The notes beneath the pieces are model-generated. The model searched no databases and was not told where the DNA came from. It saw nothing but the letters and a program-made list of their open reading frames with translations. From contig CAYJQB010000001.1 in assembly GCA_964372205.1 (NCBI GenBank), forward strand, positions 141,180 to 205,179: a DNA stretch of 64,000 bases, read 5' to 3'. Shown here piece after piece: positions 6,678 to 60,567 of this stretch. The stretch's first letter is position 1, and every line of letters begins with the position of its first letter. A program made the position numbers and the translations under genes. The DNA comes from Candidatus Woesearchaeota archaeon. Its GTDB lineage: Archaea > Nanobdellota > Nanobdellia > Pacearchaeales > GW2011-AR1.

Positions 6678-6704
6678 TTTTTATTTCTTAAGATTCTAAA
6701 TGTG

Positions 6705-10970: not shown

Positions 10971-11270
10971 CTACACAACTTCTAAAATTTGATAATGATA
11001 ACTAACAGACTTATCTCTCGTAACATAGAATCCTATCCTACAACCATTAACATCTTCTCTTTCTTCAGAGTCTATTCTCTCCAGAGCTGAAGCAAATATC
11101 TCTTCCGCAATTTTTATAAAACTATTATCACGTCCTGATAACACTCTTAAGCTTCCGTCAGATGAAATTTCTGCAATATATTTTACATCTTTAATAATTC
11201 TAGTTCCACTTTCAGGAGAGCGTCTAAAACGCACACTCCAAAAATAATCCTCAGTTTCTTTAGCCATCAA
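10971..11270 (-). CDS. hypothetical protein encoded in the 16S-tRNAAla spacer (ITS ORF B)
   Basis: 99 aa, co-oriented with the rRNAs. No family recognised. Confidence 0.4.
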   Translation of the reverse strand: MMAKETEDYFWSVRFRRSPESGTRIIKDVKYIAEISSDGSLRVLSGRDNSFIKIAEEIFASALERIDSEEREDVNGCRIGFYVTRDKSVSYHYQILEVV

Positions 11271-11299: not shown

Positions 11300-11590
11300 T
11301 TACGCTTTATCAATTTCACTTCTTGAATAAGCTCTTCCTGATTCGAGAGAAGTTCTTCCTTCTTGAACTATATCTCCCTGGATTTGTATCCTATCTCTTT
11401 CAGCATACTCCTTAGCATCTCTTTCGGATTTTGCAGAATAAAACCAAGTTCTATACTCTCCATCAGTAGGTCTCTCTCCGTCTTGTGAAGGTTTGAATCC
11501 TTTCACTGTAAAAACAAAATTAGGCATCTCTCTTCTTCCGGCAGCTCTCTCTATAGGACAGCTTTTTGTAGGGTATGGATTAATTGCCAT
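11300..11590 (-). CDS. hypothetical protein encoded in the 16S-tRNAAla spacer (ITS ORF A)
   Basis: 96 aa, co-oriented with the rRNAs. Its start is about 34 nt downstream of the 16S 3' processing-stem half. Confidence 0.4.
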   Translation of the reverse strand: MAINPYPTKSCPIERAAGRREMPNFVFTVKGFKPSQDGERPTDGEYRTWFYSAKSERDAKEYAERDRIQIQGDIVQEGRTSLESGRAYSRSEIDKA

Positions 11591-11669: not shown

Positions 11670-13112
<1,443 letters not shown>

Positions 13113-42772: not shown

Positions 42773-42773
42773 G

Positions 42774-45107: not shown

Positions 45108-45154
45108 GAAGTTTTTAGTTTATCCATCTTTATAAATATTGCCGGGAATTCGCT

Positions 45155-46573
45155 TTAACCCTTAACGACAGCAAGAGGTTTTAGTCTTACAACAAGTTTT
45201 CCAATACCCAGCTCATCACTCACTTTTACAACTTCATTCACATCTTTATAGGCTTCAGGAGCTTCCTCAAGAATCCCTTTCATGCTCCCTGCTTCAGTAT
45301 AAATGTCTCTATCAGCTAAGTCTTTTTTGATACTCTCGAGGTTTAAGTTCTTTATAGCATAACTTCTCGAAAGAACTCTCCCAGCTCCATGAGCTGTACT
45401 TGCAAAACTAATCTTTGAAGCTTCATTAGTTCCGCAAAGAACATAAGAATAAGTCCCCATACTTCCCGGTATAAATATTGGCTGTCCAACTTTTCTATAC
45501 ATTGCCGGAAGTTCCTTTCTACCCTTTCCAAAACTCCTAGTAGCACCCTTCCTATGTATGCATAGTTCTTTCTTCTTCCCATCAATCTCAAAAGTTTCAA
45601 ATTTTGCAATATTATGGGCTACATCATACACCAATTCCAGATTACTTTTTGGAAAATACTTCTTGAACGCATTTCTTATCTGGTACATTATCAATGTCCT
45701 ATTCACAAAAGCAAAATTAGCAGCAGCTCTCATCGCTCCTAAATAGTCCCTACCTAATTTGCTGTTTATTGGAGCACATGCAAGCTCTCTATCAGGGAGT
45801 TGTTTAAACCCATACTCTTTTTCCATATCTCTTATGTAGTCTGATGCAGTCTGATGTCCAAGCCCCCTGCTCCCAGAATGTATCAGTACACATATCTGTC
45901 CCTTCTTTTTCAATCCAAAAGCCTTCGCAGTTTTTTCATCATATATTTCATCAATCTCCTGTATCTCAAGAAAATGGTTTCCAGCTCCTAGTGTACCTAG
46001 TTGATTTCTTCCCCTTCCTTTCGCCTTTGCACTTACTTTTTCAGGCTCTGCCCCAAGAATACATCCTCCATCTTCACACTTTTCAGCATCTTCTTTCATA
46101 GCATAACCATTTTCAACAGCCCAAACAACACCACGTTTCATCACATCATCAAGTTCTTTCTCCTTAAAACTAAACTCTCCTTTCACACCAACTCCTGAAG
46201 GCACGTCTCTCTTTATTTGATGAGTTATCTCCTTTCTTTTTTTAAGAAACTCTTCCTTTGTCAAATTAGAAGCAAGAAGTCTAACTCCGCAATTTATATC
46301 GTAACCAATTCCTCCAGGAGAGACGATTCCTTTCTGAATATCAAAAGCAGCAACACCTCCAACAGAAAATCCATACCCTTGATGAGCATCCGGCATAGCA
46401 AGTGAATATCCAACAATTCCAGGTAGTTGAGCAACATTTCTTAATTGTTCAAGAGTCTTATCTTCCTTTATCTTCTCAATAAGCTTCTCAGAGGCGAATA
46501 CTCTTCCAGGAACTAGCATTTTTCCTTCTTTTTTCAACTCGTAAACATTCTCAGATATCTTCTTTATTTCCAT
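45155..46573 (-). CDS. rtcB: RNA-splicing ligase RtcB
   Basis: GYSLAMPDAHQGYGFSVGGVAAFD and the His-rich metal site CVLIHSGSRGLGHQ. Start taken at the internal Met MEIKKIS. Confidence 0.85.
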   Translation of the reverse strand: MEIKKISENVYELKKEGKMLVPGRVFASEKLIEKIKEDKTLEQLRNVAQLPGIVGYSLAMPDAHQGYGFSVGGVAAFDIQKGIVSPGGIGYDINCGVRLLASNLTKEEFLKKRKEITHQIKRDVPSGVGVKGEFSFKEKELDDVMKRGVVWAVENGYAMKEDAEKCEDGGCILGAEPEKVSAKAKGRGRNQLGTLGAGNHFLEIQEIDEIYDEKTAKAFGLKKKGQICVLIHSGSRGLGHQTASDYIRDMEKEYGFKQLPDRELACAPINSKLGRDYLGAMRAAANFAFVNRTLIMYQIRNAFKKYFPKSNLELVYDVAHNIAKFETFEIDGKKKELCIHRKGATRSFGKGRKELPAMYRKVGQPIFIPGSMGTYSYVLCGTNEASKISFASTAHGAGRVLSRSYAIKNLNLESIKKDLADRDIYTEAGSMKGILEEAPEAYKDVNEVVKVSDELGIGKLVVRLKPLAVVKG

Positions 46574-46611
46574 ACAGAGAAAGGTCAAAACAGGTTTATT
46601 AATGTTTCAAA

Positions 46612-47430
46612 TCAATTAAACTTCCGCCTCAAATGAGGAGGTTTATTCTTTTCATGTCTAACAATAAGAAATATAACAATCACCAATACAATAAACCCTC
46701 CCACAAAGAGATACCAATAATCTTTCACAAAACCATAAGCCGAACCAACTACCCTAGTATCCCTTTCTCCGATTATTTTTCCCAATCCTTCATCATCTTC
46801 TGAATTAGTATCACTAGGTTCAGCATCAGAAATTTTTTCGTGTATAGAACTTATTAATATACTTGCATAGCCCCCTGTGATATTTAGTAATGTGACTGAA
46901 AGGTCATAAAAGTTATCATTATTAACTTCAAATATACCTGACTCACCAATTATCAGTATTTTCTGCTGTGGCTTAGAGGATACATTGATTGTTACATTTA
47001 AATCTGTAAGTTCTATAATTCCAATATGATGTGTTTCTCCACTAACATTTAGCCTTATTCTTTGTCTCTTTTTCAGTGTTTTTTCTATTAATCCTATCTC
47101 TTCAAATGGTTTGTCGTCTTCTGCAAAAGTACCTCCTGTCCAAAAATCAGAATTCCCAGAACCTCCTCCGCCACCACCTCCAGTGTCTCCGTCTCCATCA
47201 CCTGTTGCCCCACAATAAGTTTGAATGTCTGTTGTAGAGTCAATTGTAATCAAAAATATGTCTGAGGGACTGCTTTCGTCATTACCACAAGTAATTCCAT
47301 TAATCGTAATGTTTGTATTATAAACTCCTATTTCATCAGCATCAATAAAAGTAAAATCAAAAGTTAAAGTAGTGTTAGAACCAGTAGCGGTTAAATTTGT
47401 ATATTGATTTATCCTAACAGCAGAAGCCAC
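46612..47430 (-). CDS. surface protein with Gly-rich linker and C-terminal TM anchor
   Basis: The tracked ORF begins with GTG. The in-frame upstream sequence encodes a signal-peptide-like KKKILISILLIFLVLPVASA with no ATG (see findings). A run of G follows; the C-terminal helix is LFVGGFIVLVIVIFLIV. Confidence 0.4.
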   Translation of the reverse strand: MASAVRINQYTNLTATGSNTTLTFDFTFIDADEIGVYNTNITINGITCGNDESSPSDIFLITIDSTTDIQTYCGATGDGDGDTGGGGGGGSGNSDFWTGGTFAEDDKPFEEIGLIEKTLKKRQRIRLNVSGETHHIGIIELTDLNVTINVSSKPQQKILIIGESGIFEVNNDNFYDLSVTLLNITGGYASILISSIHEKISDAEPSDTNSEDDEGLGKIIGERDTRVVGSAYGFVKDYWYLFVGGFIVLVIVIFLIVRHEKNKPPHLRRKFN

Positions 47431-47476
47431 AGGTAAGACTAAAAAAATCAGTAAAATACTAATTAAAATTTTTTTT

Positions 47477-48796
47477 TTAAATCCATGTTATCCCAACAAT
47501 CCCAGTAGCAGTTCCATTATATATGAAAATATTATCAGTATCGTTTATCCAATACATATCTCCTTCTCTCTTGCTTAATGATTGATAAGTCGCATTTGTG
47601 ACATGAGGTAGGGAGAAGAATCCTATTCTATCTCTATATGGAGAATTTGCAGTCTGTTGATTATACTTGCTCAAGGAGTAACTATTGGATGAACCTATAA
47701 CTAAAGGAGTGTTAGGATTATCTATTCTTACGTCAATATCCCAAGCAGTTCCTCCACCAGTAGAAGATGTCTTAAAAATATTCCCATAATATTTCTTTTC
47801 ATCTGAAGCTGATTGAGGATGTATGTAAGCTCCTGTTGCGTTTGCTCCTCCAGATGAAGTAACCTCAAATAGATTACCTATCACGCTAGAGCCATGATTA
47901 GATAAGAATGTCCCAGAATCGTGAATACCTCTAACATTTGCTCCTCCAGTTCCAATCGCATAAATATGGTTAGAAATTATAGTAGTTTCTCCAGTTCCAA
48001 ATATACCTATTCCTGCATTTGGATTTGTTGAAAATGAAGTGTTTGTTTGAAGGAAAATATTGTTTGCAATTATGTCCCCCCTTCCTTCCGCTGTATGTCC
48101 TTCTTTTCTAATCCCAATAGTAATCTGAGTTCCAGCAGTTCGGTTCATGATAATATCATTTCCCGTGATAAACATAGACTTTTCTCCTGAACCACCAAAT
48201 GAAATTCCACAAGCTGCCTGCGACGAAATAGTATCTATCTGAATCCTATTGTCAGATACTATGGTATTTGAAGAATAGACTAGATTTGGAATGTATAATC
48301 CCATTAAAGTAGCTTTAATATTTGAGTCCTGTAATCTGAACCTATCAAGCTTTGCGGAAGCATTAATTGCGATAGATTCATTACCCGTAGCAAAAATAGA
48401 ACAATCCCTTATGGATGAATTTGAGTAAACTGTTATGAAAACAGAAGCAGTGTTATTTTGGATTGTTGTCGAATCTACCCCTGAACATTTTAAATCGACA
48501 TTCGCTGGAAGCTCCAAGTGTGACTCATTGTAAATTCCAGGAGCAACAAATATAGTCTGTCCTGGAGAAACCGCAGAGATAGCAGCAGATACGCTAGGAT
48601 AATTTCCAAATCCATGAGAATTAACAACAAGGACATCATTAGAAATAGTATTCAAAAAGAGATTTCCACTTATATTAATACTGTCTGTGAAAGAACTTGC
48701 CGAGTTGCTTATAGTCGTGGCATAACTAACCGCTAAGAATCCAATTACGAAAATAAAACCCCAGAGGGTTAGGTAAAATCCTTTACTTTTTTTCAT
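47477..48796 (-). CDS. secreted right-handed beta-helix (pectin-lyase-fold) protein
   Basis: Signal peptide MKKSKGFYLTLWGFIFVIGFLAVSYA. Repeated units of about 22 aa (N.S, I.N.I, SDN) typical of parallel beta-helix repeats. Confidence 0.5.
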   Translation of the reverse strand: MKKSKGFYLTLWGFIFVIGFLAVSYATTISNSASSFTDSINISGNLFLNTISNDVLVVNSHGFGNYPSVSAAISAVSPGQTIFVAPGIYNESHLELPANVDLKCSGVDSTTIQNNTASVFITVYSNSSIRDCSIFATGNESIAINASAKLDRFRLQDSNIKATLMGLYIPNLVYSSNTIVSDNRIQIDTISSQAACGISFGGSGEKSMFITGNDIIMNRTAGTQITIGIRKEGHTAEGRGDIIANNIFLQTNTSFSTNPNAGIGIFGTGETTIISNHIYAIGTGGANVRGIHDSGTFLSNHGSSVIGNLFEVTSSGGANATGAYIHPQSASDEKKYYGNIFKTSSTGGGTAWDIDVRIDNPNTPLVIGSSNSYSLSKYNQQTANSPYRDRIGFFSLPHVTNATYQSLSKREGDMYWINDTDNIFIYNGTATGIVGITWI

Positions 48797-48860: not shown

Positions 48861-49271
48861 TCAAACATCCAGCACAAAAACAGCTTCCCAGGAATCTTTA
48901 TTTTTCTTCACGTACATTTCAGAATAAGTAGGAGCTTTCACATGGTCAAGATAGGGATAATTAGAGGTTTTATCTCCTTGCAGTTCAGCTTCCAGTTTAT
49001 TATCTCTTAATTTCACTTTTGCTTTTGAAACAATAAATCCTTTCGCATCACTCAAATAAATAAGCTCGTCAATGAAATTGTAGAGTAATGATTCACTATC
49101 TTCTCCCTCAATTTTTATTTTGACTTTCTTTAAAGGTTTTATTTTTTCCCCTCTAGAAACAAAATTAGAGAATGCTAAAGCAGAATTCTCAAATATCTTC
49201 TCAAGGCTCATCCCCCTGATTTTGAACTTCACTTCAGAAGTATGCTCCAGCATTTCTATGTCTTTATTCAT
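48861..49271 (-). CDS. archease (RtcB activator)
   Basis: MLEHTSEVKFKIRG at the N-terminus and DHVKAPTYSEMYV near the C-terminus (archease KAVTYH motif). Start taken at Met6, which forms an ATGA overlap with the upstream gene. Confidence 0.75.
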   Translation of the reverse strand: MNKDIEMLEHTSEVKFKIRGMSLEKIFENSALAFSNFVSRGEKIKPLKKVKIKIEGEDSESLLYNFIDELIYLSDAKGFIVSKAKVKLRDNKLEAELQGDKTSNYPYLDHVKAPTYSEMYVKKNKDSWEAVFVLDV

Positions 49272-49672
49272 TGTGCATTTTTCCACATGAAAAGTCTTAT
49301 CTTTTTTGGAGAATATCCTAAATAAGAAATATCAGAACTTATAACTCTCTCTTGCGCAAAAACCTCTCCAGAAACGTAATTTTCCATACCACATACTTCG
49401 TTGACTTCGCATATTGTGAAAGTGTGGTTAAACGTTCCAGCAGGTATTCTTTTTTCCAAAAAGCGTTCTATCTTTTCTCCATCATCGCTTAGAACAGCCT
49501 TTCTCAATTCGGTGTTCCTAGACATTTCTTCTAATATATCTCTTCCAAGCTCGTCATAGTCAAGTCCGCTAAAATCCGGTCTTGTTTCCACAAAAAGAAA
49601 ATATATGACTCCTATAAGTAGCATAATAGACACACTAGCTTCAATTATTCTTATAATTCCTTTCGAGTTCAT
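49268..49672 (-). CDS. pilin-like protein (class III signal peptide)
   Basis: MNSKGIIRIIEASVSIMLLIGVIYFLF: KG, then hydrophobic residues, with E at +5 after the predicted cleavage. Confidence 0.45.
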   Translation of the reverse strand: MNSKGIIRIIEASVSIMLLIGVIYFLFVETRPDFSGLDYDELGRDILEEMSRNTELRKAVLSDDGEKIERFLEKRIPAGTFNHTFTICEVNEVCGMENYVSGEVFAQERVISSDISYLGYSPKKIRLFMWKNAQ

Positions 49673-49673
49673 T

Positions 49674-50366
49674 TTACCAAACTTTAACAGTAAGATCTGA
49701 AAAAACAGATTCTCCGTCAACATTAATAGATTCTTTTCTTTCTGATTCGCTCCAAACTTCTAAGTCTGCAGGTATTTCCATCTCAGAAATAAAACTACTC
49801 CCTTCCAATATATTGAATGAAAATCCAAACTCAACCCTCCCGGGAAGATTAAATTCTTCTTTCACAGAACTATAAGATTCGTAATAGCTATTGTTAAGTT
49901 CCAATGCAGCTGCCTCACTCCATACTTCTTTTGTATCAGAGCTCGATACAGTAAATTGCCCCTCTTCTAGATTTGTTCCTTGAGAAACGCTTCCAGCATT
50001 ATAAGTTTTTGAAAATTTAACAACAATAAATTTTTCAGAGCCCCTATCTATTACTGCATATCCTCCTTCATACTTAGACGGAAGAAAGTCTCCTGCATTG
50101 TTTTCAGCTCTGACGTTGTATCCTTTAGGATTTTCTAAAGGAATTCCTACAACTCCCTCATTTACCTGATTATCGATGACTACAGAGTAAGTTATCAGTT
50201 CAACACTTATGTTTTGAGATATTTCATCCATAGCATAATCTATTGAAGATTCAACAACCCTATCAACATCCAAAGGATTGAAAAAGTATAACGCGAAGAC
50301 TAAAAATCCCATAAAAAGCACAAAAGCCAGAATGACTTCAACATGCCCCATCCCTCTTTTTTCCAT
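49674..50366 (-). CDS. pilin-like protein (class III signal peptide)
   Basis: MEKRGMGHVEVILAFVLFMGFLVFALYF. Confidence 0.45.
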   Translation of the reverse strand: MEKRGMGHVEVILAFVLFMGFLVFALYFFNPLDVDRVVESSIDYAMDEISQNISVELITYSVVIDNQVNEGVVGIPLENPKGYNVRAENNAGDFLPSKYEGGYAVIDRGSEKFIVVKFSKTYNAGSVSQGTNLEEGQFTVSSSDTKEVWSEAAALELNNSYYESYSSVKEEFNLPGRVEFGFSFNILEGSSFISEMEIPADLEVWSESERKESINVDGESVFSDLTVKVW

Positions 50367-50407
50367 TATCGATAAAACGTAATATTATTTAAATACCTTG
50401 CCTATAA

Positions 50408-51178
50408 GTGTCTATGTTAAATAATCTGGTTGAAGAAATAAAAAAGAAAAAGGAGTTTAGGGGCATTTCTTCAGAGTTTGTTTCGGGAGTTCTTCAAAGT
50501 TTTTTAAAGAAAAATAACATTTCCTTTCCTCAAGGAAAAAGAGAAGAAAAACTTATAGTAAAATCAGTCAGAGCAGAACTCAGAAGATTCACAGGGCAGT
50601 ACCAGACTTCATCAAATGGTAAACAAAGAGAAGAGCTCTTAAAACAAGGAAAAATGAATGAGTTACTTTCAACACACGTTTCCACAAAAGAAAGATTGTC
50701 TTTCTATGACGAACTTATATCAGAGATAAACAAGTTAAATCCCTCATCTATTTTGGACTTGGGCTGTGGGCTAAACCCCTTAGCCATTGCAACAAAAAAG
50801 GTCAAATATTATGCTTGTGATATCCAGGAAGATGAGTTAAAACTAGTCTCCGAATTTTTCAAGTTAAATCACATACCTGGAAAATCTTTCTACTGCGACC
50901 TAAGAAATGAAATAAATCTTCCAAAAGCAGATCTTTGTCTAATATTCAAAGTCTTTGACCTTCTAGACAAAAAGGGCCATGCAGTTTCAAAAAGAATTCT
51001 CTCAAATCTAACTTGTAGGAATATAATAGTCAGTTTCTCAACAAAAAAATTATCAGGCAGAGCTATGAACAATCCCAGAAGATACTGGTTCGAAAAGATG
51101 CTGGACTCTTTAGAATATTCTTTCGAAACAAAAAGTTCAGACAATGAAATATTTTATTTTATCCTAAAAAGACTCTAG
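50408..51178 (+). CDS. ArmA/RmtB/Sgm (FmrO)-family 16S rRNA (guanine1405-N7)-methyltransferase homolog
   Basis: STHVSTKERLSFYDEL ... SSILDLGCGLNPLAI ... VKYYACDIQ ... NIIVSFSTKKLSGRAMNNPRRYWFEKM aligns block-for-block with ArmA as I recall it (IHSSTNERVATLNDFY ... SSILDFGCGFNPLAL ... IIYHAYDID ... NFVISFPIKSLSGKE..ENY..WFE). Same length, about 256 aa. Confidence 0.55.
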   Translation: MSMLNNLVEEIKKKKEFRGISSEFVSGVLQSFLKKNNISFPQGKREEKLIVKSVRAELRRFTGQYQTSSNGKQREELLKQGKMNELLSTHVSTKERLSFYDELISEINKLNPSSILDLGCGLNPLAIATKKVKYYACDIQEDELKLVSEFFKLNHIPGKSFYCDLRNEINLPKADLCLIFKVFDLLDKKGHAVSKRILSNLTCRNIIVSFSTKKLSGRAMNNPRRYWFEKMLDSLEYSFETKSSDNEIFYFILKRL

Positions 51179-52019
51179 TCCCAGAAGATATCAGGAATGC
51201 TAAGATTATCATAACAATAGAATGTTTGAAACCAGATTTAACAGTCCCTTCAGAAAGTTTCCCTATCACCAGTCCTGCAAAAAATCCCTGCGTGAGTAGC
51301 AGATAGAGAAAAGGCCTCGCGAGCGCTTCTGGAGAGTAAGTCGAAGTGTTTACATCAGCAAAATTCCCAGAAGCAAGAGTATCAACATTATTGAAAGAGC
51401 CTATAGAATTTATTCCAGAAGTCAAAGGCAGTATCTTGAATTCCATAATAAGCATTATTCCTATGAATATCAAGAATATTATATATCCCTGCACAACTAA
51501 AGTGGACACAGCATTTTTTCTTTCCTTTCTCAACTTCTCTATCTCATAGATGGAATTCGCAACAGAATCTAATATGTGGTCTATTTCTCCTCCAGCATTT
51601 TCCGCTTCCCTTATCAAGCTTATAGCTCTTTTGACAACCTCGCTATCTGCTTCATTAGCAAAGTTTACAAAAGCTCTGCTTATCGGTATCCCTACAGATA
51701 TTTGGTTTGCAAGCTTTTTAACAGCAGGACTTAAGGGCCCAAATCCCTTATCTTTCATGTTCAGTATACTCTTCCCAATAGGTGTTCCTGACTTCACGCT
51801 CTCAGCCAGATTTCTCGAAAATTCCAAAAATTGCTGGTTGATTTCCTGTTCTTTTTTGCTTTCAAGAACCAACCCTGCTAAGATTGGAAGAAGCACCGCA
51901 GTAAAACCTATTCCCAAAAGAAATATGAAAAGCTTGTCACCTAAAAAGAAAGAAATGTCTACGATAACGATAAGCAGACCAAAAATACCTCCAATCCAAT
52001 GCATCTTTCTTATTCTCAT
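51159..52019 (-). CDS. TadC/FlaJ-like pilus-assembly membrane protein (single T2SSF domain)
   Basis: T2SSF-type region VKRAISLIREAENAGGEIDHILDSVANSIYEIEKLRKERKNAVS flanked by TM helices. Confidence 0.55.
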   Translation of the reverse strand: MRIRKMHWIGGIFGLLIVIVDISFFLGDKLFIFLLGIGFTAVLLPILAGLVLESKKEQEINQQFLEFSRNLAESVKSGTPIGKSILNMKDKGFGPLSPAVKKLANQISVGIPISRAFVNFANEADSEVVKRAISLIREAENAGGEIDHILDSVANSIYEIEKLRKERKNAVSTLVVQGYIIFLIFIGIMLIMEFKILPLTSGINSIGSFNNVDTLASGNFADVNTSTYSPEALARPFLYLLLTQGFFAGLVIGKLSEGTVKSGFKHSIVMIILAFLISSGTRVFLG

Positions 52020-52285
52020 CTTTTCCCCCTCATCATCTTATACACTAAATACACGAACGAAGTTAGTATAAATATGTATGATATCCAATAAAACCCAGGG
52101 AATGCTGTTTCTGTAAACACCTGAGCACATAAGTTGTCTACAGGATAGCTTCCAAGTGGGTTGAAGAAGCTGGGGGTGCAAGAGTTGTGCCACTCAAAAG
52201 GCATCAGCAAAAATGCAGTCATCAAAATAAGCTCTGCTATAATCAGTTTTCTGAACCATCCCTCATAATTTTTTCTTTTTTTCAT
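52016..52285 (-). CDS. small membrane protein
   Basis: 89 aa with two hydrophobic helices, lying between the two T2SSF-domain genes. Confidence 0.35.
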   Translation of the reverse strand: MKKRKNYEGWFRKLIIAELILMTAFLLMPFEWHNSCTPSFFNPLGSYPVDNLCAQVFTETAFPGFYWISYIFILTSFVYLVYKMMRGKR

Positions 52286-52286
52286 T

Positions 52287-53615
52287 TTAATATCCTGGTT
52301 GCTTTAATCCCAACAATACTATAAACAATATGTTAACAAGAGCAACGATTAGGATTATTGCTAAAGTCATAGAACTTGTTCCAATACCTATACTGATTCC
52401 TGAGACAGAAATCATTACTAAAAGCAAGAGAAGTATCATCGGAGCAGCTATAACAACGCTGATGTAAATATCCATAAATGTCTCCGCAGTCTTTGTGAAT
52501 TTCTCTCTTTCAAGGCGATAATTAAGAAGCAGTGTCTCAGCCCTTTTTTCCAGGAAAGATTTTAAATCTCCTCCAGTCATTATTGCCGTAGCAAGTCCTT
52601 TCATCAAGTCAGAAAGTTTCTTACTTGGTGTAGACTGAGCGATATTTTTTAAGGCAGTAACGAGGTCATATCCATAAACATTTATTTGATTGAGAAGCTT
52701 TCTTATCTCGCTTCCAGTGTTCCTATATTCCTTACTTGTTCCGATTATTTTGAATATCTGTGTAGGTTCAATGCCACTTCCAGAGATTGAAGCCATATGT
52801 ATTGCTACAAAAGGAAGTTCTCTGTCTATTTTACTTCCAAGTGATTTCTTTTCTGTATAAGGGTAGAAATAAAATGCTGCGAACATAAGTAATGGGGCTG
52901 CTAAGATTATCCAAGACACTTTCAGAATCCGCATTCCAATACTCCCTGCATATGATGTAAGGTATGGAGAGCTGAATTCAACATTGAAGAACAACAAGAA
53001 TACAGTGAAACCTATTCCAATTATTCCTGCAACAATCATCATGACAAACATCATCGACAGATAAGTGGTTGGGAGAATGTTCATATTGCTCTTCCTAAGA
53101 TCAAGTCTTAAGCCTGCAAATTTTCCCTTTTCCAAAAGCTCTTCAGAGAAATTTCTGAAAAGAGAATTAGAAAATTTAGCGAATCCGGCAGATTTTTTAT
53201 ACTCTTTTATTTTATCTTCTTTTACAGAATCTTTTCTCTTTAGTTTTCTCAAAAGCTCTTCACTTATACTCAATTCTTCCAAAAATTTATCTTTGTCCTG
53301 TCCGCGCAAAGACACCTTGATATACCCATTGTTTCTCAGTTTAACTTTAGAATCCGGACCTGCTTCATTCACTTCCAAGGTGAAGATATTCGCCGAAGAT
53401 TTCTTTCCAGGAATTTTCCTGATAAGTGATACGTCCTTCAATATCTCAACAACAGAATCATTTATCAATTTTATTCTTCTTTTATAAGAACCTATCATAG
53501 ACTCTAGAAGTTTTTTTTCATCAACAGATGAGAATTCAGTTCTCTCAATAAATCCGGAGAGTTCCCTGACCATTTTTATTTCATTTTCAATGTTCTCTAT
53601 CAGTTCATCTATCAT
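52287..53615 (-). CDS. TadB/FlaJ-like pilus-assembly membrane protein (cytoplasmic N-domain plus T2SSF domain)
   Basis: 442 aa. A cytoplasmic N-terminus of about 170 aa, TM helices, and a T2SSF-like region (LLNQINVYGYDLVTALKNIAQSTPSKKLSDLMKGLATAIMTGGDLKSFLEKRAETLL). Confidence 0.55.
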   Translation of the reverse strand: MIDELIENIENEIKMVRELSGFIERTEFSSVDEKKLLESMIGSYKRRIKLINDSVVEILKDVSLIRKIPGKKSSANIFTLEVNEAGPDSKVKLRNNGYIKVSLRGQDKDKFLEELSISEELLRKLKRKDSVKEDKIKEYKKSAGFAKFSNSLFRNFSEELLEKGKFAGLRLDLRKSNMNILPTTYLSMMFVMMIVAGIIGIGFTVFLLFFNVEFSSPYLTSYAGSIGMRILKVSWIILAAPLLMFAAFYFYPYTEKKSLGSKIDRELPFVAIHMASISGSGIEPTQIFKIIGTSKEYRNTGSEIRKLLNQINVYGYDLVTALKNIAQSTPSKKLSDLMKGLATAIMTGGDLKSFLEKRAETLLLNYRLEREKFTKTAETFMDIYISVVIAAPMILLLLLVMISVSGISIGIGTSSMTLAIILIVALVNILFIVLLGLKQPGY

Positions 53616-53619
53616 GTCA

Positions 53620-53802
53620 TTACCTCTTTACTATAATATCGATTTTTTTCTGAATATCCAATATCTCTTTTTTTGTTTTTTCTAGCTCTTCAAAATCTTT
53701 CTTCTCATAAGAACTATCTAACTTTTTAGCCGCAATCAGCATAGAATCCAACAATTGTGCCAGAGCTACCACCTCTTGTTTATCCATAATTCTAGAAGCC
53801 AA
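53620..53802 (-). CDS. small coiled-coil protein
   Basis: 60-aa ORF between the ATPase and the membrane component. Confidence 0.3.
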   Translation of the reverse strand: MASRIMDKQEVVALAQLLDSMLIAAKKLDSSYEKKDFEELEKTKKEILDIQKKIDIIVKR

Positions 53803-53819
53803 ACTGCGTTTAAATAACT

Positions 53820-55379
53820 TTATTTAGACACGTTCTGTTCAGGGCTCTTAGCGGGTTCCACTACCCCATACTTTCTAAGTACCGCCGCAGGATTTCTATA
53901 GTATTCGTTCACAATCTTCTGCATATCTGCAAAGCCGAAAATACCTGCTTTGTATAGGTTGTAGAGCAACCTTGCTCTTCTAGAAAACTCTACCTGAAGC
54001 TCTTCGAGGCTTGTTCCATACCTTGCAGAAATTTTTTCAAATACTTTACTTTGTTTCTTGAAGAAGAAAGAATCTTTTCCGGCATCCCACACAAGAGGAG
54101 TATTTATCAAAGTGGACCCATTCTTATCAACATTGACAACTTCGACAATCTCTCTTAACCTTCTCGTATGCTTATTTTTTAAGATTGCATGAGTCATAAC
54201 TGCTATACAATCTAAAGTGTTTACCAACGTTGGTGAAAGGTTGATTGGAGGAGTCTGTAATCTTCTTACAACTGTCTCCAAAGAGTCTGCGTGCAGAGTG
54301 CTTATAGAAGGATGACCGGAAGCCATTCCCTGGAAAAGAACAGACGCCTCTTTACCCCTTACCTCTCCAACAATCACATAGTCTGGATTTTGTCTGAAAG
54401 AGTTTTTCAGAAGGTCAAAAAGGTCGACTTGTCCCACCTTTCCAATACCTACAGAGGTTCTAGCTACAGCCGGAAGCCAGTTCTCTCTCGGAAGATTAAG
54501 TTCTCTAGTGTCTTCAATAGAGATGACTCTTGCTTCAGGAGGAATAAAAAATGCAAGAGCGTTCAGGAGAGTTGTTTTTCCAGAAGATGTTCCTCCAGTT
54601 ATCAATATGTTAGACTTGAACTGTATCAACAGCCAAAAGTATGCGAGCATCTCCGGACTTAAAGTATGCAGAGCAATCAATTGCGTTGGAGTCCAAGGGA
54701 CTTTTGTGAACTTTCTTATCGTGAATGTAGGTCCTCGAGAGGTGACATCTTTAGTATAAGTAGCATTTACTCTGCTTCCATCAGGAAGCGAACCATCTAA
54801 CAAGGGATTAGCGTAAGATATGTATTTTCCACTTCTTTGCGAAAGTTTTTCAACAAAACTTGCAAGTTCGTCAACGTTCCTGAATATGATGTTAGTCTTA
54901 AGATTTCTGAACATTCTGTGAACGATGTAAGTAGGAGTATCAACTCCATTACACTCTATATCTTCAATAAAGTAGTCTTTCAATAAAGGGTCTATCTGAT
55001 TCATCCCTATAAAATCTCTATAAAGATAGTAGAACAACCTCTCATAACTTGATTCGCTAATCTTCAGATTAAGCTCCCCTATAAGCAATCTCGCAGTTTT
55101 GTCTATGTACTCAACAAGGCTTTGTAGAGTTTTATCAACAGCAAGATTGACATTTATCATCTCAAGCATAGCTTCCTCTATTTTTTTGAGAGCTATTTTT
55201 TCCTCATCGCTAAGAAGTGGCTCTTCAACATCGTAGACAAGCTCACCTGCATTCTCATCCCAATAGATGTGCGCATTCGCATAAGGAGCTATCAAAGAAT
55301 ACCTAATATCTATCTGAGTTTTATCATCAAATTTCTTAAGTGGAGGGATGCTAGGCCGAACATTTATTTTAATCACCAT
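53820..55379 (-). CDS. FlaI/TadA/VirB11-family type IV pilus assembly ATPase
   Basis: Walker A LITGGTSSGKTTLLNAL; Asp box VISIEDTRELNL; Walker B DYVIVGEVRGKEA; His box LHADSLE. 519 aa. Confidence 0.85.
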   Translation of the reverse strand: MVIKINVRPSIPPLKKFDDKTQIDIRYSLIAPYANAHIYWDENAGELVYDVEEPLLSDEEKIALKKIEEAMLEMINVNLAVDKTLQSLVEYIDKTARLLIGELNLKISESSYERLFYYLYRDFIGMNQIDPLLKDYFIEDIECNGVDTPTYIVHRMFRNLKTNIIFRNVDELASFVEKLSQRSGKYISYANPLLDGSLPDGSRVNATYTKDVTSRGPTFTIRKFTKVPWTPTQLIALHTLSPEMLAYFWLLIQFKSNILITGGTSSGKTTLLNALAFFIPPEARVISIEDTRELNLPRENWLPAVARTSVGIGKVGQVDLFDLLKNSFRQNPDYVIVGEVRGKEASVLFQGMASGHPSISTLHADSLETVVRRLQTPPINLSPTLVNTLDCIAVMTHAILKNKHTRRLREIVEVVNVDKNGSTLINTPLVWDAGKDSFFFKKQSKVFEKISARYGTSLEELQVEFSRRARLLYNLYKAGIFGFADMQKIVNEYYRNPAAVLRKYGVVEPAKSPEQNVSK

Positions 55380-55418
55380 CTTGCAATAACTACTTTGTAG
55401 GAATTTATATACTTAATG

Positions 55419-55940
55419 CTAAACTTGTTCAAAACTTACTATTTGTATGCCCTCATCTGTAAATCCGTCGTTCTGGAACCTGAATTTATAGGGAACACTG
55501 CTCGATTGGAATATCAAAATCTCATCTGTTCCTTCAAAAGTCAGATTGAACTGATACTCTAATGAAAGCTCAACCTTGTGTTTTTTTGCACCTTCTGTAG
55601 TTAGCACTTTTACTCTTCCTATCTCCGTCTCAACACCAGGTTCAGAGAATAGCAAATCACTATCTTCTAGCACAAAATTTATCTTGTCATTCGCTCTATC
55701 AAATCTAAGTTGCCCTCTTTTCATCCCAAACTCAACAGTCCTAGCATTTCCAACTCCTCCAGATGTTGTTTCAGACAATTTAGAATCCAATGCGTTCATA
55801 GAAGATATAGTTTGTTCAAGAATAGACTTATCCCTGAATTCATTTATTCTAGGTGTGACTATAGCCAATACCACTGCTAACAGAGCAAGCCCTATCAAAG
55901 TGTAAATAACTGTCTCTACCCAAATCTGGCCTTTTTCCAT
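55419..55940 (-). CDS. pilin-like protein
   Basis: MEKGQIWVETVIYTLIGLALLAVVLAIV, with the pilin-type hydrophobic N-terminus. Confidence 0.45.
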   Translation of the reverse strand: MEKGQIWVETVIYTLIGLALLAVVLAIVTPRINEFRDKSILEQTISSMNALDSKLSETTSGGVGNARTVEFGMKRGQLRFDRANDKINFVLEDSDLLFSEPGVETEIGRVKVLTTEGAKKHKVELSLEYQFNLTFEGTDEILIFQSSSVPYKFRFQNDGFTDEGIQIVSFEQV

Positions 55941-55941
55941 T

Positions 55942-56478
55942 TTAATAAGCTAGCAAACTCTGTCTGGCATCATTATCCAAGCAGGTGTTAACTCTTATAG
56001 AATCACTAACATCACAAAGCTTTCCAGACTTCAATATTGCATTGACTTCAAGCTCATCAAATAATCCATCCGCGACATAAGTTCTTACTCCCCCCTTACT
56101 AGGCACATTTAGCTTCGTATCAAATCCTGAACTAAGCATTCTTATCTTTATTCCTAAAGAATTTCCATCAGTTCCATTCATTATCTCCATGACTTCAGAA
56201 GTCCCGTCCTTGAAAAGCGAGACTTTTATTCCAGCGACTTCCTCCCCATTGACTCTCACAGAGAATCCTGTTCTGTTCTTATCTCCTCCATCAACATAAC
56301 AGTTGTAAGGAGTTTCATCAAATTTCACATCTCCAAGAGTGTTTATACATTCTTCACTTCCTTCAAGATTTTCGCTTACAAAAGGAATTACAAAAACAGC
56401 CAGAATGCTTATAGCAACAAAAGTTATTATTAAAATCAGAACAGTAGCGATTATAGGACTTATACCTCGTTTATTCAT
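55942..56478 (-). CDS. archaeal type IV pilin
   Basis: MNKRGISPIIATVLILIITFVAISILA has the canonical KRG-ISP..ATVL class III signal. Confidence 0.6.
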   Translation of the reverse strand: MNKRGISPIIATVLILIITFVAISILAVFVIPFVSENLEGSEECINTLGDVKFDETPYNCYVDGGDKNRTGFSVRVNGEEVAGIKVSLFKDGTSEVMEIMNGTDGNSLGIKIRMLSSGFDTKLNVPSKGGVRTYVADGLFDELEVNAILKSGKLCDVSDSIRVNTCLDNDARQSLLAY

Positions 56479-56527
56479 CACACTCCTCTCCATCTCGTTA
56501 AATGTAGAAATCTCTTTTTATATGTTT

Positions 56528-56989
56528 CTAAATAGTCACTCCAACGCCATATTGGTCAGCGCAAGTATAAGCCACTTTTCCCGCATCAGTCTCTCCAAGG
56601 ATTATAGGAACGACTAGTATTTCGTCATTATCATCAAAATCACTTCCAAGAAGTTTTTTGGTTAAGGTTATAGATTCTCCAGTCCCTACGCTCTCACTAG
56701 TATACTCTGTCACAACAACCTCTCCTTTACCAAATCTCTTTATGTCAAATCCGTATAACGGAGCTTCACCCTGATTGTTTATTTCAAGAACATAATCTTC
56801 TCCAGAAGGAAATATTCCAGCTTGGAATTTAACTTTTCCAGCACATGCATTTTCGGCAGGCTCTCCAAATTTGGAAACTCCTTCTTTGACAAACCCTCTT
56901 GCCCATAAGAAAACTATTGAAGCAAGGATAATAACAATCATTATTAACAATACTGAAGCAATTACCGGACTCAATCCCCTCTTATTCAT
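56528..56989 (-). CDS. archaeal type IV pilin
   Basis: MNKRGLSPVIASVLLIMIVIILASIVFLWA. Confidence 0.6.
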   Translation of the reverse strand: MNKRGLSPVIASVLLIMIVIILASIVFLWARGFVKEGVSKFGEPAENACAGKVKFQAGIFPSGEDYVLEINNQGEAPLYGFDIKRFGKGEVVVTEYTSESVGTGESITLTKKLLGSDFDDNDEILVVPIILGETDAGKVAYTCADQYGVGVTI

Positions 56990-57029
56990 TTTAATAGATG
57001 TTCTGTTTTATTTTTATATCTTTGTAACA

Positions 57030-58646
57030 CTAAGGGTTAGCTATGCATTCACCCCATCCACATTGGGAAGTACATGTTTGCGTTCCTCCACCGATTTCTC
57101 CACCGCTTCCAGAATCTCCACCATAACTAATAGCGAATCCACCCACTCCACCCCCACCAGTTTGATCTCCCGGAGTGCAATCTCGTATATCTCCTACTTC
57201 ACATATTTCATATCCTTCATCCCATACTCCATTTCCACAATACCCTGCACATCCACCTATATTGAATTTACACTCATTCTGGTTTCCAGGAACATAACAA
57301 CTCAATGTTCCATAGTAATAGTTTCCGTATCCAGGAGAAGGAATGTTTGTACAGTCTTTTCCATTCAGATTGTTTCCGTCACACTCTTCCCATATTTGGT
57401 CAATAAGTCCATTTCCACAGACAGGATTATTTGAATCACATCCATCAGGAACTCCATCACCATCACTATCCTGGTTATCATCAAATCCATCACAAGTATC
57501 GTCTGTGTCACAAACTCCATCTCCATCTGTGTCATCTGGATTGTCAAATGGACACATATCTGCATCATCGCAAATTCCATCTTCATCAGTATCGAAGTTA
57601 GATTGTCCGTAACAATCACATGCATCACCTAATCCATCTCCATCACTATCCTGCTGATTACTATTTGAGTCATAAACACAGTTGTCATCGCTGTCACGTA
57701 CTCCATCCCCATCAGAATCTCTTGGAGTAACTTTCAGTTCATTTGAAGAGTCAATAAACTCATTACCATTTTCTACTAAAAATGCTCTAAAAATATATTC
57801 TGGATTGTCGTTTATTCCATCATCCTGTTCCCACACAGCTGTCCATGTGACTGACGCTACAGCTCCAGAGAACATTACATTCCCAGGCATATTAAAACTG
57901 ACAGCATCTCCATCATCCCAGTTTCCGCTTCCAAATAGGGAATCATCCTCTCTTATCTCAAATCTCACCTCTTTTCCGTCGCAGTACGAATCTCCTCCAA
58001 TAATAAGGTTTACATTTTCTCCCTCTTCTACTTGCGTTGTGCTCCATGATGCGCTAGTCAATCCACACTCCTGCTGATTGTTCCCACCACCATTTCCATT
58101 GTCAGAATCATCAAGCAAGTTGTTCTGAACATCAAAGTTTATACATTGGATTATCTCAAGAGATTTACTAGCCTCACCACATACATGACCATCACTCAAT
58201 ATTGGAAATATATCAACTCTGTCATAAGCACCATTTGCAACATAAATTCTCACTCCTCCCTCGTTATTCGCTTCCAAAGGCAGTCCGAATGACTGCTGAT
58301 AAGACATCCTTAATAGGTTAGAAGTTACACCATCTTCAACATCAACAATTTCTGTGCTTCCACTTTGCAATAATCCTACTCTAAATCCTCTGATGTTCTC
58401 GCTTTCAATTTTTATAGAAAATCCAGTTCTTTGTTTATCTGTATCACTATACCAGCAATTGTAATCAGAGCTTTTATCAAAATTAATTTCATTCAGCGCA
58501 TCAAAACAATCTTCTCTCCCGAATATATCTTTCACAAAAGGAATAGCATATTTTGCAAGCAACCCTCCAAGAACAATCACTACCAATATAATAAGAATAG
58601 TAGCCATAACAGGGCTTATACCCTTTTTATTCAACCCTCTTTTCAT
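57030..58646 (-). CDS. large pilin-like adhesin with thrombospondin type-3 (calcium-binding) repeats and a Cys-rich C-terminal domain
   Basis: N-terminus MKRGLNKKGISPVMATILIILVVIVLG. Central D-x-D-x-D-G-x-x-D-x-x-D-x-C repeats (DSDGDGVRDSDDNC, DSDGDGLGDACDC, DTDEDGICDDADMC, DTDGDGVCDTDDTC, DSDGDGVPDGCD). The C-terminus is rich in G and C. Confidence 0.6.
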   Translation of the reverse strand: MKRGLNKKGISPVMATILIILVVIVLGGLLAKYAIPFVKDIFGREDCFDALNEINFDKSSDYNCWYSDTDKQRTGFSIKIESENIRGFRVGLLQSGSTEIVDVEDGVTSNLLRMSYQQSFGLPLEANNEGGVRIYVANGAYDRVDIFPILSDGHVCGEASKSLEIIQCINFDVQNNLLDDSDNGNGGGNNQQECGLTSASWSTTQVEEGENVNLIIGGDSYCDGKEVRFEIREDDSLFGSGNWDDGDAVSFNMPGNVMFSGAVASVTWTAVWEQDDGINDNPEYIFRAFLVENGNEFIDSSNELKVTPRDSDGDGVRDSDDNCVYDSNSNQQDSDGDGLGDACDCYGQSNFDTDEDGICDDADMCPFDNPDDTDGDGVCDTDDTCDGFDDNQDSDGDGVPDGCDSNNPVCGNGLIDQIWEECDGNNLNGKDCTNIPSPGYGNYYYGTLSCYVPGNQNECKFNIGGCAGYCGNGVWDEGYEICEVGDIRDCTPGDQTGGGGVGGFAISYGGDSGSGGEIGGGTQTCTSQCGWGECIANP

Positions 58647-58681
58647 AATCTTAATTAGAAGATTTAGTTTTTAATTATTTG

Positions 58682-59200
58682 CTAAATACAATTAACAGTC
58701 CTCGTTTGAATAGCATCTGTGCATATAGCAGGGTAATTATCAACAAAGACTACTGGTCCTACTTCCAGTTCCTGTTCACCTAAGTTAGTGTAATTGAAAG
58801 ATTTCATTATCATCTCTCCTGGCTTAAGTCCTTCATCGAGAACTTTTCTTCCATCAGTAGTAGTCTCCTGATTAAAGTAAACATTACATTCATTCCCTCT
58901 TGAGCCTTCAAAGCACAACGTTTCTCTCGCAATCCTGCTAGAGTTTCCTATTTTGACAAAGGCACCATCAACACTGAAAAGTCCTCGATTTTCTAAAGTG
59001 ATATTCAGATAACCTCCAACACATTTTACTTCTCTCACATTCACACTAACATCAGTAGGACATTTAGGATTATCCTTTGGAACATAAAAGTTCAAAAAAG
59101 CATAGACTCCAGCAGCAATCCCTACAGCTATCACAATCAAAAGCACATAACCTACCATCTCACTAAGTCCTTTTCTATCCTTCTGCAACCAAAACTTCAT
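58682..59200 (-). CDS. pilin-like protein
   Basis: KDRKGLSEMVGYVLLIVIAVGIAAGVYAFLNF, with E at +3 after KG. Confidence 0.45.
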   Translation of the reverse strand: MKFWLQKDRKGLSEMVGYVLLIVIAVGIAAGVYAFLNFYVPKDNPKCPTDVSVNVREVKCVGGYLNITLENRGLFSVDGAFVKIGNSSRIARETLCFEGSRGNECNVYFNQETTTDGRKVLDEGLKPGEMIMKSFNYTNLGEQELEVGPVVFVDNYPAICTDAIQTRTVNCI

Positions 59201-59693
59201 CCTCATCCTCCTTGATAACTATGTAAAAGAAGTTATAACCTTTTTTCATTTCAAAGGTATGAGTGGAATTGTCTATAATTACTTTTATCTCTTCTCCTTG
59301 AAGTGAAACATTAGCTTCTTTTCCAGTCTTCCTTTGCACAGGCACAGTAACCCACTCTCCTCCTGTGTCTATCCCTACAACTCCAAGACTTTCTTCTTTA
59401 AAATGCATACCATACAGGTCAGAACTGTTCCCATAGACTGATATGAACTGATCAGAGCCTATATAATCAGAGTAATTGAAAAGGAAGTCAGACGTAAGGT
59501 CTAGGACATTTTCTTCACTGTATGCGCTGTAGTCCATGAGTTCTTTGTTCTCATCCCCAACTTCCTTGGCTAAATCATAGAAATACTCCTTGCTTTCTTT
59601 TACATTCACATAATTGACTATGGTGGTAAGCCCCAAGAGCACCCCTATTATTATGAATGTAGCTACTAAAAAAAACTGCCCTCTTTCGTTCAT
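59175..59693 (-). CDS. pilin-like protein
   Basis: MNERGQFFLVATFIIIGVLLGLTTIV. Confidence 0.4.
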   Translation of the reverse strand: MNERGQFFLVATFIIIGVLLGLTTIVNYVNVKESKEYFYDLAKEVGDENKELMDYSAYSEENVLDLTSDFLFNYSDYIGSDQFISVYGNSSDLYGMHFKEESLGVVGIDTGGEWVTVPVQRKTGKEANVSLQGEEIKVIIDNSTHTFEMKKGYNFFYIVIKEDEDEVLVAEG

Positions 59694-60197: not shown

Positions 60198-60231
60198 TAA
60201 AATTTCACAAATCTAAACTTTATAAGAATAG

Positions 60232-60490
60232 TGTAGGCGGGGAGATTGCTCAGCTTCAGCTTGCTGGCTACCTTCCAGCCTTCCTCAACTTTGCACCCCT
60301 ATAAGCACCGAAACTTCTGTTTAGGGCTGCTCCGATCAAGGCCTGACCCTTTTCACAGGAGTACGGTCGAACAGGACAAAGCGTCAACGTCCGGCGGAAG
60401 ACCAAAAAGCCTCCACATCACGCACTCCTTTAAGCCTGCCATAAAGCCCATTTGCAGATAGCGCAGGGCTAGCGCGCCAGCTTGCCTACA
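60232..60490 (-). ncRNA. GC-rich structured RNA candidate, most consistent with SRP (7S) RNA; strand uncertain
   Basis: About 52% GC and non-coding, between divergent genes. Terminal pairing UGUAGGC (60232-60238) with GCCUACA (60484-60490). The minus strand has GGUCAGGCC-UUGAUC-GGAGCAGCC, which resembles the SRP RNA domain IV motif GGUCAGGUCC-GGAA-GGAAGCAGCC. It also has two 5' hairpins (GCGC-UAGCCCU-GCGC and CUUUA-UGGCAGGCU-UAAAG) whose loops are complementary (AGCC/GGCU), like Alu-domain helices 3 and 4. Confidence 0.35.
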
Positions 60491-60567
60491 TAGTTCTCAT
60501 TCCCTCAGACTTTTTAAAGCCTTTCATACAACAAAGGGCTTAAATAACCAAATTTGTCAGTTGGGAA

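Follow-up and report, generated by a model that had tools for sequence, protein, structure and literature searches.

Several archaeal type IV pilus systems with two platform genes have already been described. The Epd pilus of Methanococcus maripaludis needs the ATPase EpdL and two PilC paralogues, EpdJ and EpdK, both of which are essential and 'reminiscent of' tadB/tadC (Pohlschroder & Esquivel 2015, PMC4371748). Two tadC-like genes are found in clade 1, in many clade 2 loci and in subclade 4B (Makarova et al. 2016, PMC4858521). Clade 2 ATPases occur in Nanoarchaea (PMC4858521), and AfGspE (AF0659) belongs to clade 2, arCOG01817 (Makarova, Fig. S4, PMC4858521). The platform genes of Epd-like and Tad systems have one T2SSF domain each and arose by a shared gene fission (Denise et al. 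2019, PMC6668835), and two platform genes are also reported in the DPANN 'system 1' and in some DPANN 4A loci (2026 preprint, 10.64898/2026.04.22.720090). The present analysis deals with a pilus locus in a 64,000-nucleotide stretch of a Candidatus Woesearchaeota archaeon genome (assembly GCA_964372205.1, contig CAYJQB010000001.1, positions 141,180 to 205,179), hereafter the window.

The pilus genes all lie on the minus strand, from 59693 down to 49268 of the window, and encode eight pilin-like proteins (pA to pH), an assembly ATPase, two platform proteins (F1 and F2) and two small proteins (s60 and s89). With a probability of roughly 85%, they make up a functional type IV pilus assembly-and-subunit module of a Pacearchaeota-like DPANN archaeon. 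This assignment draws on the observed gene content, domain identities, collinearity of F1 and F2 with the halves of FlaJ, conservation, purifying selection and the pilin-like architecture of the pF model. The window comes from a low-GC (~36%) archaeon and contains archaeal rRNA genes, an RNase P RNA and archaeal housekeeping genes, and the nearest named relatives of the locus proteins are from metagenome-assembled genomes (MAGs) of Candidatus Pacearchaeota, Woesearchaeota and Nanoarchaeota. An earlier annotation made from the letters of this DNA (the sequence-only reading) had proposed an archaeal type IV pilus-like locus other than an archaellum, and domain scans bear this out. All genes that it named, including the 60-aa protein and the 89-aa membrane protein between the platform genes, are present on the minus strand at the coordinates that it gave. 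Two points were revised, since the last pilin most likely starts at 49672 (MNSKG/IIRIIEA) instead of 49723, and three pilins (pC, pD and pE) instead of two carry the canonical KRG/[IL]SP[VI][IM]A[ST] N-terminus. It was also silent on a plus-strand methyltransferase gene (MTase) that breaks up the locus.

The module is widespread and its order is rigid. A scan of one genome per species gave 379 related stretches, of which 80 loci were fetched, many of them on truncated contigs. The order pA-pB-(pC)-pD-pE-pF-ATPase-s60-F1-F2-[MTase, opposite strand]-pG-pH recurs in all 80, across MAGs of Pacearchaeota, Woesearchaeota and Nanoarchaeota, and this recurrence far exceeds chance. In the common architecture, arginyl-tRNA synthetase (ArgRS) and other genes may stand before pA and archease after pH. 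Mapping the window proteins by phmmer located F1 in 80 of the 80 loci, F2 in 77 (79 after checking), the ATPase in 76, s60 in 75, pG in 72, pF and the MTase in 69 each, pH in 68, pE in 64 and pD in 62, and pC was found in only some relatives. Changes relative to a 95%-identical strain (GCA_053534795.1) are almost all synonymous, with synonymous to non-synonymous counts of 64:3 for the ATPase, 73:2 for F2, 86:21 for F1 and 37:5 for pF, and these genes are therefore under strong purifying selection.

Table 1. Genes of the pilus locus and other features of the window. Positions are those of the window; the slash follows the conserved [KR]G of the signal.
Feature	Position	Strand	Length	Assignment	N-terminal signal or remark
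pA	59175-59693	-	172 aa	minor-pilin-like	MNERG/QFFLVATF, Gln +1
pB	58682-59206	-	174 aa	minor-pilin-like	KG/LSEMVGYVLLIV
pC	57030-58646	-	538 aa	modular pilin/adhesin (putative)	KKG/ISPVMATIL
pD	56528-56989	-	153 aa	PilA-like pilin, candidate major subunit	NKRG/LSPVIASVLL
pE	55942-56493	-	183 aa	PilA-like pilin	NKRG/ISPIIATVL
pF	55419-55940	-	173 aa	minor pilin	MEKG/QIWVETVIYTLI; Gln +1, Glu +5
ATPase	53820-55379	-	519 aa	assembly ATPase, FlaI/GspE/TadA superfamily
s60	53620-53802	-	60 aa	small soluble charged protein	ATPase-F1 interval
F1	52287-53615	-	442 aa	platform protein, N-terminal-half type
s89	52016-52285	-	89 aa	lineage-specific small membrane protein, two transmembrane segments	F1-F2 junction
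F2	51159-52019	-	286 aa	platform protein, C-terminal-half type, TadB-like
MTase	50408-51178	+		Rmt/FmrO-like S-adenosylmethionine methyltransferase	embedded, converges on F2
pG	49674-50366	-	230 aa	minor-pilin-like	MEKRG/MGHVEVILAF; Glu +5
pH	49268-49672	-	134 aa from ATG at 49672	minor-pilin-like	MNSKG/IIRIIEASVS; Arg +3, Glu +6
SRP RNA	60231-60491	-		divergent archaeal type	S domain 60287-60383
Surface-protein run	40196-48796	-		predicted surface proteins
Presenilin/SPP homologue	33886-34824
Large pilin-like protein	13396-15600	-	734 aa	possible pilin-anchored surface protein	MEKRG/LSTVVSSVLIIL
16S rRNA	11670-13112	-
ORF	11300-11590	-		no Pfam match
ORF	10971-11270	-		no Pfam match
tRNA	10857-10927
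ORF	10490-10849	-		no Pfam match
23S rRNA	6690-9777	-

The Epd pilus, with its pilins EpdA-E and a dedicated peptidase, EppA, of nine transmembrane segments, corresponds to Makarova's clade 1, to system 1 and to the 'Epd-like' clade of Denise et al. Compared with the Epd pilus and DPANN system 1, the locus is similar in its one ATPase with two single-T2SSF platform genes, in its five or more minor pilins, and in having some pilins with Gln at +1 (only pA and pF) or Glu at +5 (only pF and pG); system 1 is, moreover, reported in DPANN. Gln +1 combined with Glu +5 marks the Epd pilins that EppA processes, and bacterial pilins as well (PMC4371748). In contrast to Epd, the locus has no EppA or other A24 peptidase and no FleN/MinD/TadZ-like ATPase, and three of its pilins (pC, pD and pE) are PilA-like with the PibD-type KRG/[IL]SP N-terminus. 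No short (~70 aa) headless major pilin occurs among the open reading frames (ORFs) of 30-110 aa in the window; such pilins (arCOG06620 type) are usually stand-alone genes elsewhere in the genome (PMC4858521). The DUF361/Class_IIIsignal Pfam model has no match to the Q+1 pilins, and the nearest solved relative of the ATPase is the clade 2 protein AfGspE, in a comparison with solved structures that included no Epd sequence.

Clade 2, represented by AfGspE and by Haloferax PilB3/PilC3 with PilA, resembles the locus in its ATPase, which aligns full-length to AfGspE, in its PilA-like Pilin_N pilins, and in the two tadC-like genes of many of its loci. On the other hand, in the fetched haloarchaeal example one protein of 701 aa forms the platform and the ATPase, which bears extensions, measures 833 aa, and the five minor-pilin families and s60 of the present locus are without detectable counterpart in curated libraries. 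Two platform genes, many minor pilins and the occasional Gln +1/Glu +5 are thus traits toward clade 1/system 1, and the AfGspE-like ATPase and PilA-like pilins are traits toward clade 2. It is doubtful that the near-invariant 13-gene module constitutes a distinct filament subtype of Pacearchaeales, Woesearchaeales and Nanoarchaeota and not plain clade 1 or 2. The defining traits of such a subtype would be PibD-type PilA pilins together with five minor-pilin families bearing bacterial or EppA-like Gln +1 and Glu +5/+6, the presence of s60, the fission into N-half then C-half, and the lack of a linked peptidase.

The sequence-only reading had also drawn a parallel with bacterial TadB/TadC, which holds in that there are two single-T2SSF proteins and that F2 is TadB-like. 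Against profiles of four sequences each, taken from four bacterial Tad loci, F2 matches TadB with E 1.5e-8 and TadC with 2.4e-4, while F1 leans weakly to TadC (E 3.3e-4 vs 1.7e-3 for TadB). With single TadB and TadC sequences, hhalign gave E values of 0.01-0.3 for F1 and F2, and the comparison became informative, for F2 alone, once the four-sequence profiles were used. In a control with haloarchaeal PilC, its C-terminal half was matched by TadB and its N-terminal half by TadC, which reproduces Denise et al. 2019. The locus shares with Tad the split platform and an ATPase that matches CpaF structures (160 bits). In contrast, the genes follow the order N-half then C-half here, collinear with the unsplit FlaJ, whereas bacteria have tadB then tadC. 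Flp pilin, TadV, secretin (RcpA), CpaB and TadZ are lacking at this locus, the other Tad components of two bacterial loci (L088 and L090) have no counterpart at it, and the pilins here have globular beta domains, unlike those of Tad.

The ATPase was recognized as a FlaI/TadA-type enzyme by the sequence-only reading, and it has a Pfam T2SSE domain (PF00437, 108 bits, E 4.5e-31) with Walker A (GGTSSGKTT) and Walker B (DYVIVGEVRG) motifs that are intact as read from the sequence. Among solved structures, A. fulgidus AfGspE (2OAP) scores highest, with 382 bits in a full-length alignment, followed by Sulfolobus FlaI (274 bits) and bacterial CpaF. Its best NCBIfam model is FlaI, and the best curated models for F1 and F2 are ArlJ/FlaJ, which raises the question of whether the locus encodes an archaellum, the rotary motility filament. 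The scores are far under the curated cut-offs, at 382 vs 550 bits for the ATPase, and 97.5 and 64.2 vs 550 bits for ArlJ. Moreover, the ATPase is nearer to the non-archaellar AfGspE than to the crystallised FlaI, archaellar FlaJ is a single chain, and Pfam and NCBIfam scans of the locus proteins give no match to FlaF, FlaG, FlaH, FlaC/D/E or FlaX, in agreement with the earlier claim that archaellum-specific genes are absent. An archaellum can accordingly be set aside with near certainty in favor of a non-archaellar pilus.

In ten related genomes the pilus ATPase ORF reaches 984-1057 aa through large in-frame insertions (L019:6756-9734, L026:3025-6198 and L058:2141-5281; also L023, L027, L029, L032, L054, L059 and L062). 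The insertion of L019 is ~480 aa long and follows SIED, with intein-like ends ('SIED/SVTGD...VHN/TRELN'), and those of L026 and L058 measure ~536 aa and lie near residue 222. The three insertions examined thus occupy two different sites. The insertions of this group are probably inteins. Between the ATPase and F1, the soluble and highly charged s60, for which public gene callers give 55 aa in place of 60, recurs in the large majority of related loci as counted above. It has no Pfam or NCBIfam match and is apparently an uncharacterised obligatory partner of the machinery.

The two platform proteins are polytopic and, as first proposed, have one T2SSF domain each. Pfam places PF00482 at residues 273-398 of F1 (58.9 bits) and 67-192 of F2 (61.2 bits), both well over the cut-off of 25.2. 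F1 consists of a cytoplasmic N-terminal extension of ~175 aa, transmembrane (TM) helices, the T2SSF domain and further TM helices. Residues 231-440 of F1 map to positions 43-248 of the 555-position ArlJ/FlaJ profile and residues 2-283 of F2 to positions 265-548, and the UpsF profile gives the same N-half/C-half pattern. On the 701-aa single-chain haloarchaeal PilC, the F1 profile covers positions 52-340 (probability 99%, E 5e-18) and the F2 profile positions 465-699 (probability 98.5%, E 2e-15). The mutual similarity of F1 and F2 is weak (E 8e-5). The model of F1 (predicted local distance difference test score, pLDDT, 75) starts with a helical hairpin, continues through a region of poor prediction and TM helices, and also contains a helical bundle, which superposes on the cytoplasmic domains of EpsF, PilC and OutF with a target-normalised template-modelling score of ~0.7. 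By homology, F1 and F2 together are a split FlaJ.

Such contiguous alignment to the halves of single-chain ArlJ, UpsF and PilC, together with an additional 89-aa ORF in between, would also be expected if F1 and F2 were halves of one FlaJ/TadC broken by a frameshift or an assembly error in a decaying locus. The sequence-only reading had named this as the outcome that would overturn it; the contiguous alignment to a single FlaJ/PilC was indeed found, but the frameshift was not, the two genes being separate in all checkable relatives. They are separate ORFs in 79 of the 80 loci, and the contig of the 80th ends after F1; one seeming absence of F2 is a masked gap of 100 N. F1 and F2 lie 1 nt apart in ~50 of the 80 loci, and in a 63%-identical Pacearchaeota genome (L001:11378-21171) four genes spanning ~10 kb separate them. 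Each type has more than 1,800 database homologues, and the 120 best homologues of each half are ~430 aa or ~285 aa long with a single T2SSF domain, one fragment aside. F1 ends in the conserved KQPGY C-terminus of its family, and F2 starts at the N-terminus of its own. The same three ORFs are found in independent assemblies of the same species and of the 95% relative, and s89 has a small protein family of its own and resembles neither F1 nor F2. Since F1 and F2 are separate genes in every checkable relative and are both under purifying selection, the split is a fixed gene fission, and breakage by frameshift or misassembly has a negligible chance of being true. The premise that a two-gene platform is unusual in archaea is not supported, as the arrangement has been published for several archaeal systems; the locus is a well-sampled further instance of FlaJ/PilC fission. 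The four genes inserted in L001 encode proteins of 986, 253, 1496 and 514 aa, of which the 1,496-aa one is an S8 peptidase/Laminin_G_3 protein.

The small s89 has two hydrophobic segments and no Pfam match, and none of the 80 related loci carries it. Both the same species and the 95% strain have it intact, under weaker constraint (13 synonymous vs 13 non-synonymous changes). A search of 1.84 billion representative proteins gave 12 distant homologues of s89, several of which are stand-alone proteins of ~90 aa. In an alignment of eight family members, C36, P43, G45, C53, Q55 and Y66 are invariant, with an invariant loop C-x6-P-x-G-x7-C-x-Q between the two TM segments. An origin as a remnant of F1 or F2 was rejected for lack of similarity to either. 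As s89 is intact in the 95% strain, has its own family and is absent from the related loci, it is a genuine small membrane protein, specific to this lineage and inserted at the junction. Other small membrane ORFs stand at the same junction in other lineages, of 124 aa in L013 (11315-11689) and L065 (11312-11685) and of 73 aa in L058 (6796-7017); they were considered as homologues of s89 and proved unrelated. The F1-F2 junction is thus a recurrent insertion point.

The embedded MTase overlaps F2 by 20 nt in convergent orientation. It matches Pfam FmrO with 70 bits and the generic NCBIfam Rmt model with 143 bits (cut-off 250), and aligns over its full length to the Rmt enzymes that form m7G1405 in 16S rRNA (G1405-N7, aminoglycoside-resistance type). 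Its occurrence at this site in 69 of the 80 loci may be set against 17 for archease and 14 for ArgRS. In L057, L067, L072, L076 and L077 the MTase is absent and pG-pH adjoin F2 downstream, and because these five lineages keep pG-pH next to F2, both pilin-like genes belong to the system and the MTase is dispensable. A role as pilus component, for example in N-methylation of pilins, was rejected, given the full-length Rmt likeness, the opposite strand and the absence from five pilus-bearing lineages. From this sequence evidence, the MTase is probably an embedded bystander.

All eight pilin-like ORFs begin with a short charged N-terminus that ends in [KR]G and is followed by a strongly hydrophobic segment, as expected from the eight class III signal genes counted previously, and all eight families keep this [KR]G plus hydrophobic helix across 16-72 genomes. 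Matches to Pilin_N or TIGR02537 support four of the eight. pD is over the cut-off of both models (26 and 36 bits), pC is over that of TIGR02537 and also matches the UpsA N-terminus, and the Pilin_N scores of pE (24.1 bits) and pB (18.7 bits, weak) are just under the cut-off. The N-terminal motifs are characteristic of each family. The three PilA-like pilins pC, pD and pE share K[RK]G/[LVI]SPV[IV]AT.LL, and the pD form K[RK]G/[LV]SPV[IV]AT.LL is found in 62 of 62 orthologues. In pA, [KR]G/QFF[LI].AA is kept in 16 orthologues, and in pB, KG/VS.M.GYVLLIV is kept in 14 of 16. The pF motif is [KR]G/Q[VI]W[IV]ETV.YTLI, which 60 of the 70 orthologues found bear; Q+1, W+3 and E+5 each occur in 51 of these 60. 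pG has [KR]G/.SH[IV]E, with H+3 in 61 and E+5 in 65 of 71 orthologues, and pH has [KR]G/W[LI]RIVEA in 67 orthologues; for pH, gene callers give 134-151 aa.

With 40 homologues as input, the AlphaFold2 model of pF reaches a pLDDT of 90.7 and shows a helix at residues 2-60 (59 residues) and then a ten-strand beta domain, so that the predicted fold of pF is a generic pilin architecture. The N-terminal 178 aa of pC are 36% identical to pE (E 2e-37), and pE is 29% identical to pD (E 3e-9); by sequence similarity, pE is a paralogue of pC and, more distantly, of pD. The C-terminal extension of pC (~360 aa) has TSP_3 (thrombospondin type 3) Ca-binding repeats (25.2 bits) and a Cys-rich region, and as a pE paralogue with such an extension, pC can be regarded as a modular adhesin-like pilin. 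Far from the locus, a stand-alone 734-aa protein without Pfam domain begins with a canonical pilin N-terminus that shares 61% identity with pD across 28 residues. This large protein may serve as a pilin-anchored surface protein or adhesin and rely in trans on the same machinery.

Taken together, the components suggest the following mechanism. The eight prepilins would be inserted into the membrane and cleaved after the conserved [KR]G by an unlinked class III signal peptidase. A hexameric FlaI/AfGspE-type ATPase would dock on the cytoplasmic T2SSF helical bundles of F1 and F2, whose heterodimer of N-half and C-half would rebuild the pseudo-two-fold platform made elsewhere as one chain, and would power the transfer of pilins out of the membrane and into the filament. 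The PilA-like pD and pE are the likely filament subunits, and pC, as the pE paralogue, would bear the Ca-binding, Cys-rich adhesive module. pA, pB, pF, pG and pH, several of which bear a bacterial-style Glu +5 and/or Gln +1, may form a set of minor pilins with a probable function in priming or capping the fibre, and s60 would act as a conserved small cytoplasmic accessory protein.

The processing step calls for closer consideration. No A24 prepilin peptidase of the PibD, FlaK or EppA type was found in the 64-kb window of the ~660-kb genome, a result that bears on the locus and not on the organism as a whole. Matches to PF06550 (37.7 bits) and NCBIfam PSH (48 bits) identify the sole other polytopic protein of the window as a presenilin/SPP homologue, and hence there is no prepilin peptidase in the whole window. 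The earlier statement that the locus lacks this enzyme can thus be extended, and its description of the GxGD protease as presenilin-like agrees with both matches. When two bacterial TadV sequences were compared by phmmer with every ORF of the window and of the related archaeal loci, no match emerged, in what is a low-power test. The presenilin homologue was considered as the missing peptidase and dropped, since nothing beyond its presence 15 kb away speaks for it.

A number of points weigh against a functional pilus as described. Pilin processing has to be assumed, because searches of the window and of the 10 kb around the locus in the 80 relatives revealed no A24 peptidase. Four to five of the eight pilins are without a curated match: Pfam has none for pA, pF, pG and pH, and NCBIfam none for pF and pG. 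The model of pF has no significant Foldseek match to solved pilins. The locus family is known from genes alone, and the sequence gives no means of telling adhesion from DNA uptake or surface display.

This last point bears on the role of the filament. Adhesion, and attachment to a host in episymbiosis, is a plausible role inferred from the gene content. A type IV filament whose main job is different, namely DNA uptake, or a pseudopilus- or bindosome-like display or secretion, is a less likely alternative. Natural transformation of M. maripaludis depends on Epd-type pili according to PMC10133366, and a genome-reduced symbiont would gain from DNA scavenging. Several pF homologues are named 'pseudopilin PulG' by JGI/IMG, the S8 peptidase/Laminin_G_3 protein and three other large proteins stand between F1 and F2 in one relative, and PKD-domain and other surface proteins adjoin the locus. 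However, ComEC-like, DNA-binding and substrate-binding-protein genes are lacking in the locus, pC is a pilin fused to an adhesin-like Ca-binding repeat module, and every characterised archaeal non-archaellum type IV pilus mediates adhesion (PMC4371748). An adhesive pilus is the likelier reading.

The predicted surface-protein run lies directly downstream of the pilus locus. Two of its members are large and have PKD domains (858 and 777 aa), another, of 439 aa, has a signal-like N-terminus, and one of 272 aa has a C-terminal TM anchor; in the 95%-identical strain (L086) another gene stands in place of the latter two. Upstream of pA, the signal recognition particle (SRP) RNA is divergent, with 77.8 bits on the full Archaea_SRP model vs a gathering score of 96.5. 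Its S domain alone clears the Bacteria_small_SRP threshold, which is the call of the default scan; this match seemed an oddity and is explained by the S domain belonging to an archaeal SRP RNA that is divergent. At the other end of the window, the 16S and 23S rRNA genes are ~1.9 kb apart, with a tRNA and three minus-strand ORFs of 96-119 aa between them. The 23S match is ~100 nt longer than the model, and no 5S rRNA was reported in the window.

The uncultured Pacearchaeota, Woesearchaeota and their DPANN relatives are genome-reduced archaea and presumed episymbionts. For these organisms the locus offers candidates for an attachment apparatus, in the form of a pD and pE fibre, the adhesin-bearing pilin pC and five minor pilins, and it is among the most conserved multi-gene modules near the window, with related stretches in 379 species-representative genomes. 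If the module were a distinct subtype after all, these episymbionts would have in it their main organelle of host contact, and its fission may then be independent of the Epd/Tad fission, or its pilins may be cut by a non-A24 protease. In a cryogenic transmission electron microscopy study of groundwater, components of type IV pili were described as 'missing in DPANN genomes', and piliated ultra-small cells were on that ground assigned to bacteria of the candidate phyla radiation (10.1101/2020.05.14.094862); the 379 matched places in species-representative genomes correct that statement. What makes the locus family valuable is how broadly and how rigidly the module is kept across DPANN; the split platform adds no new principle. 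The family may, in addition, help to ask whether the fission of FlaJ/PilC happened once or several times.

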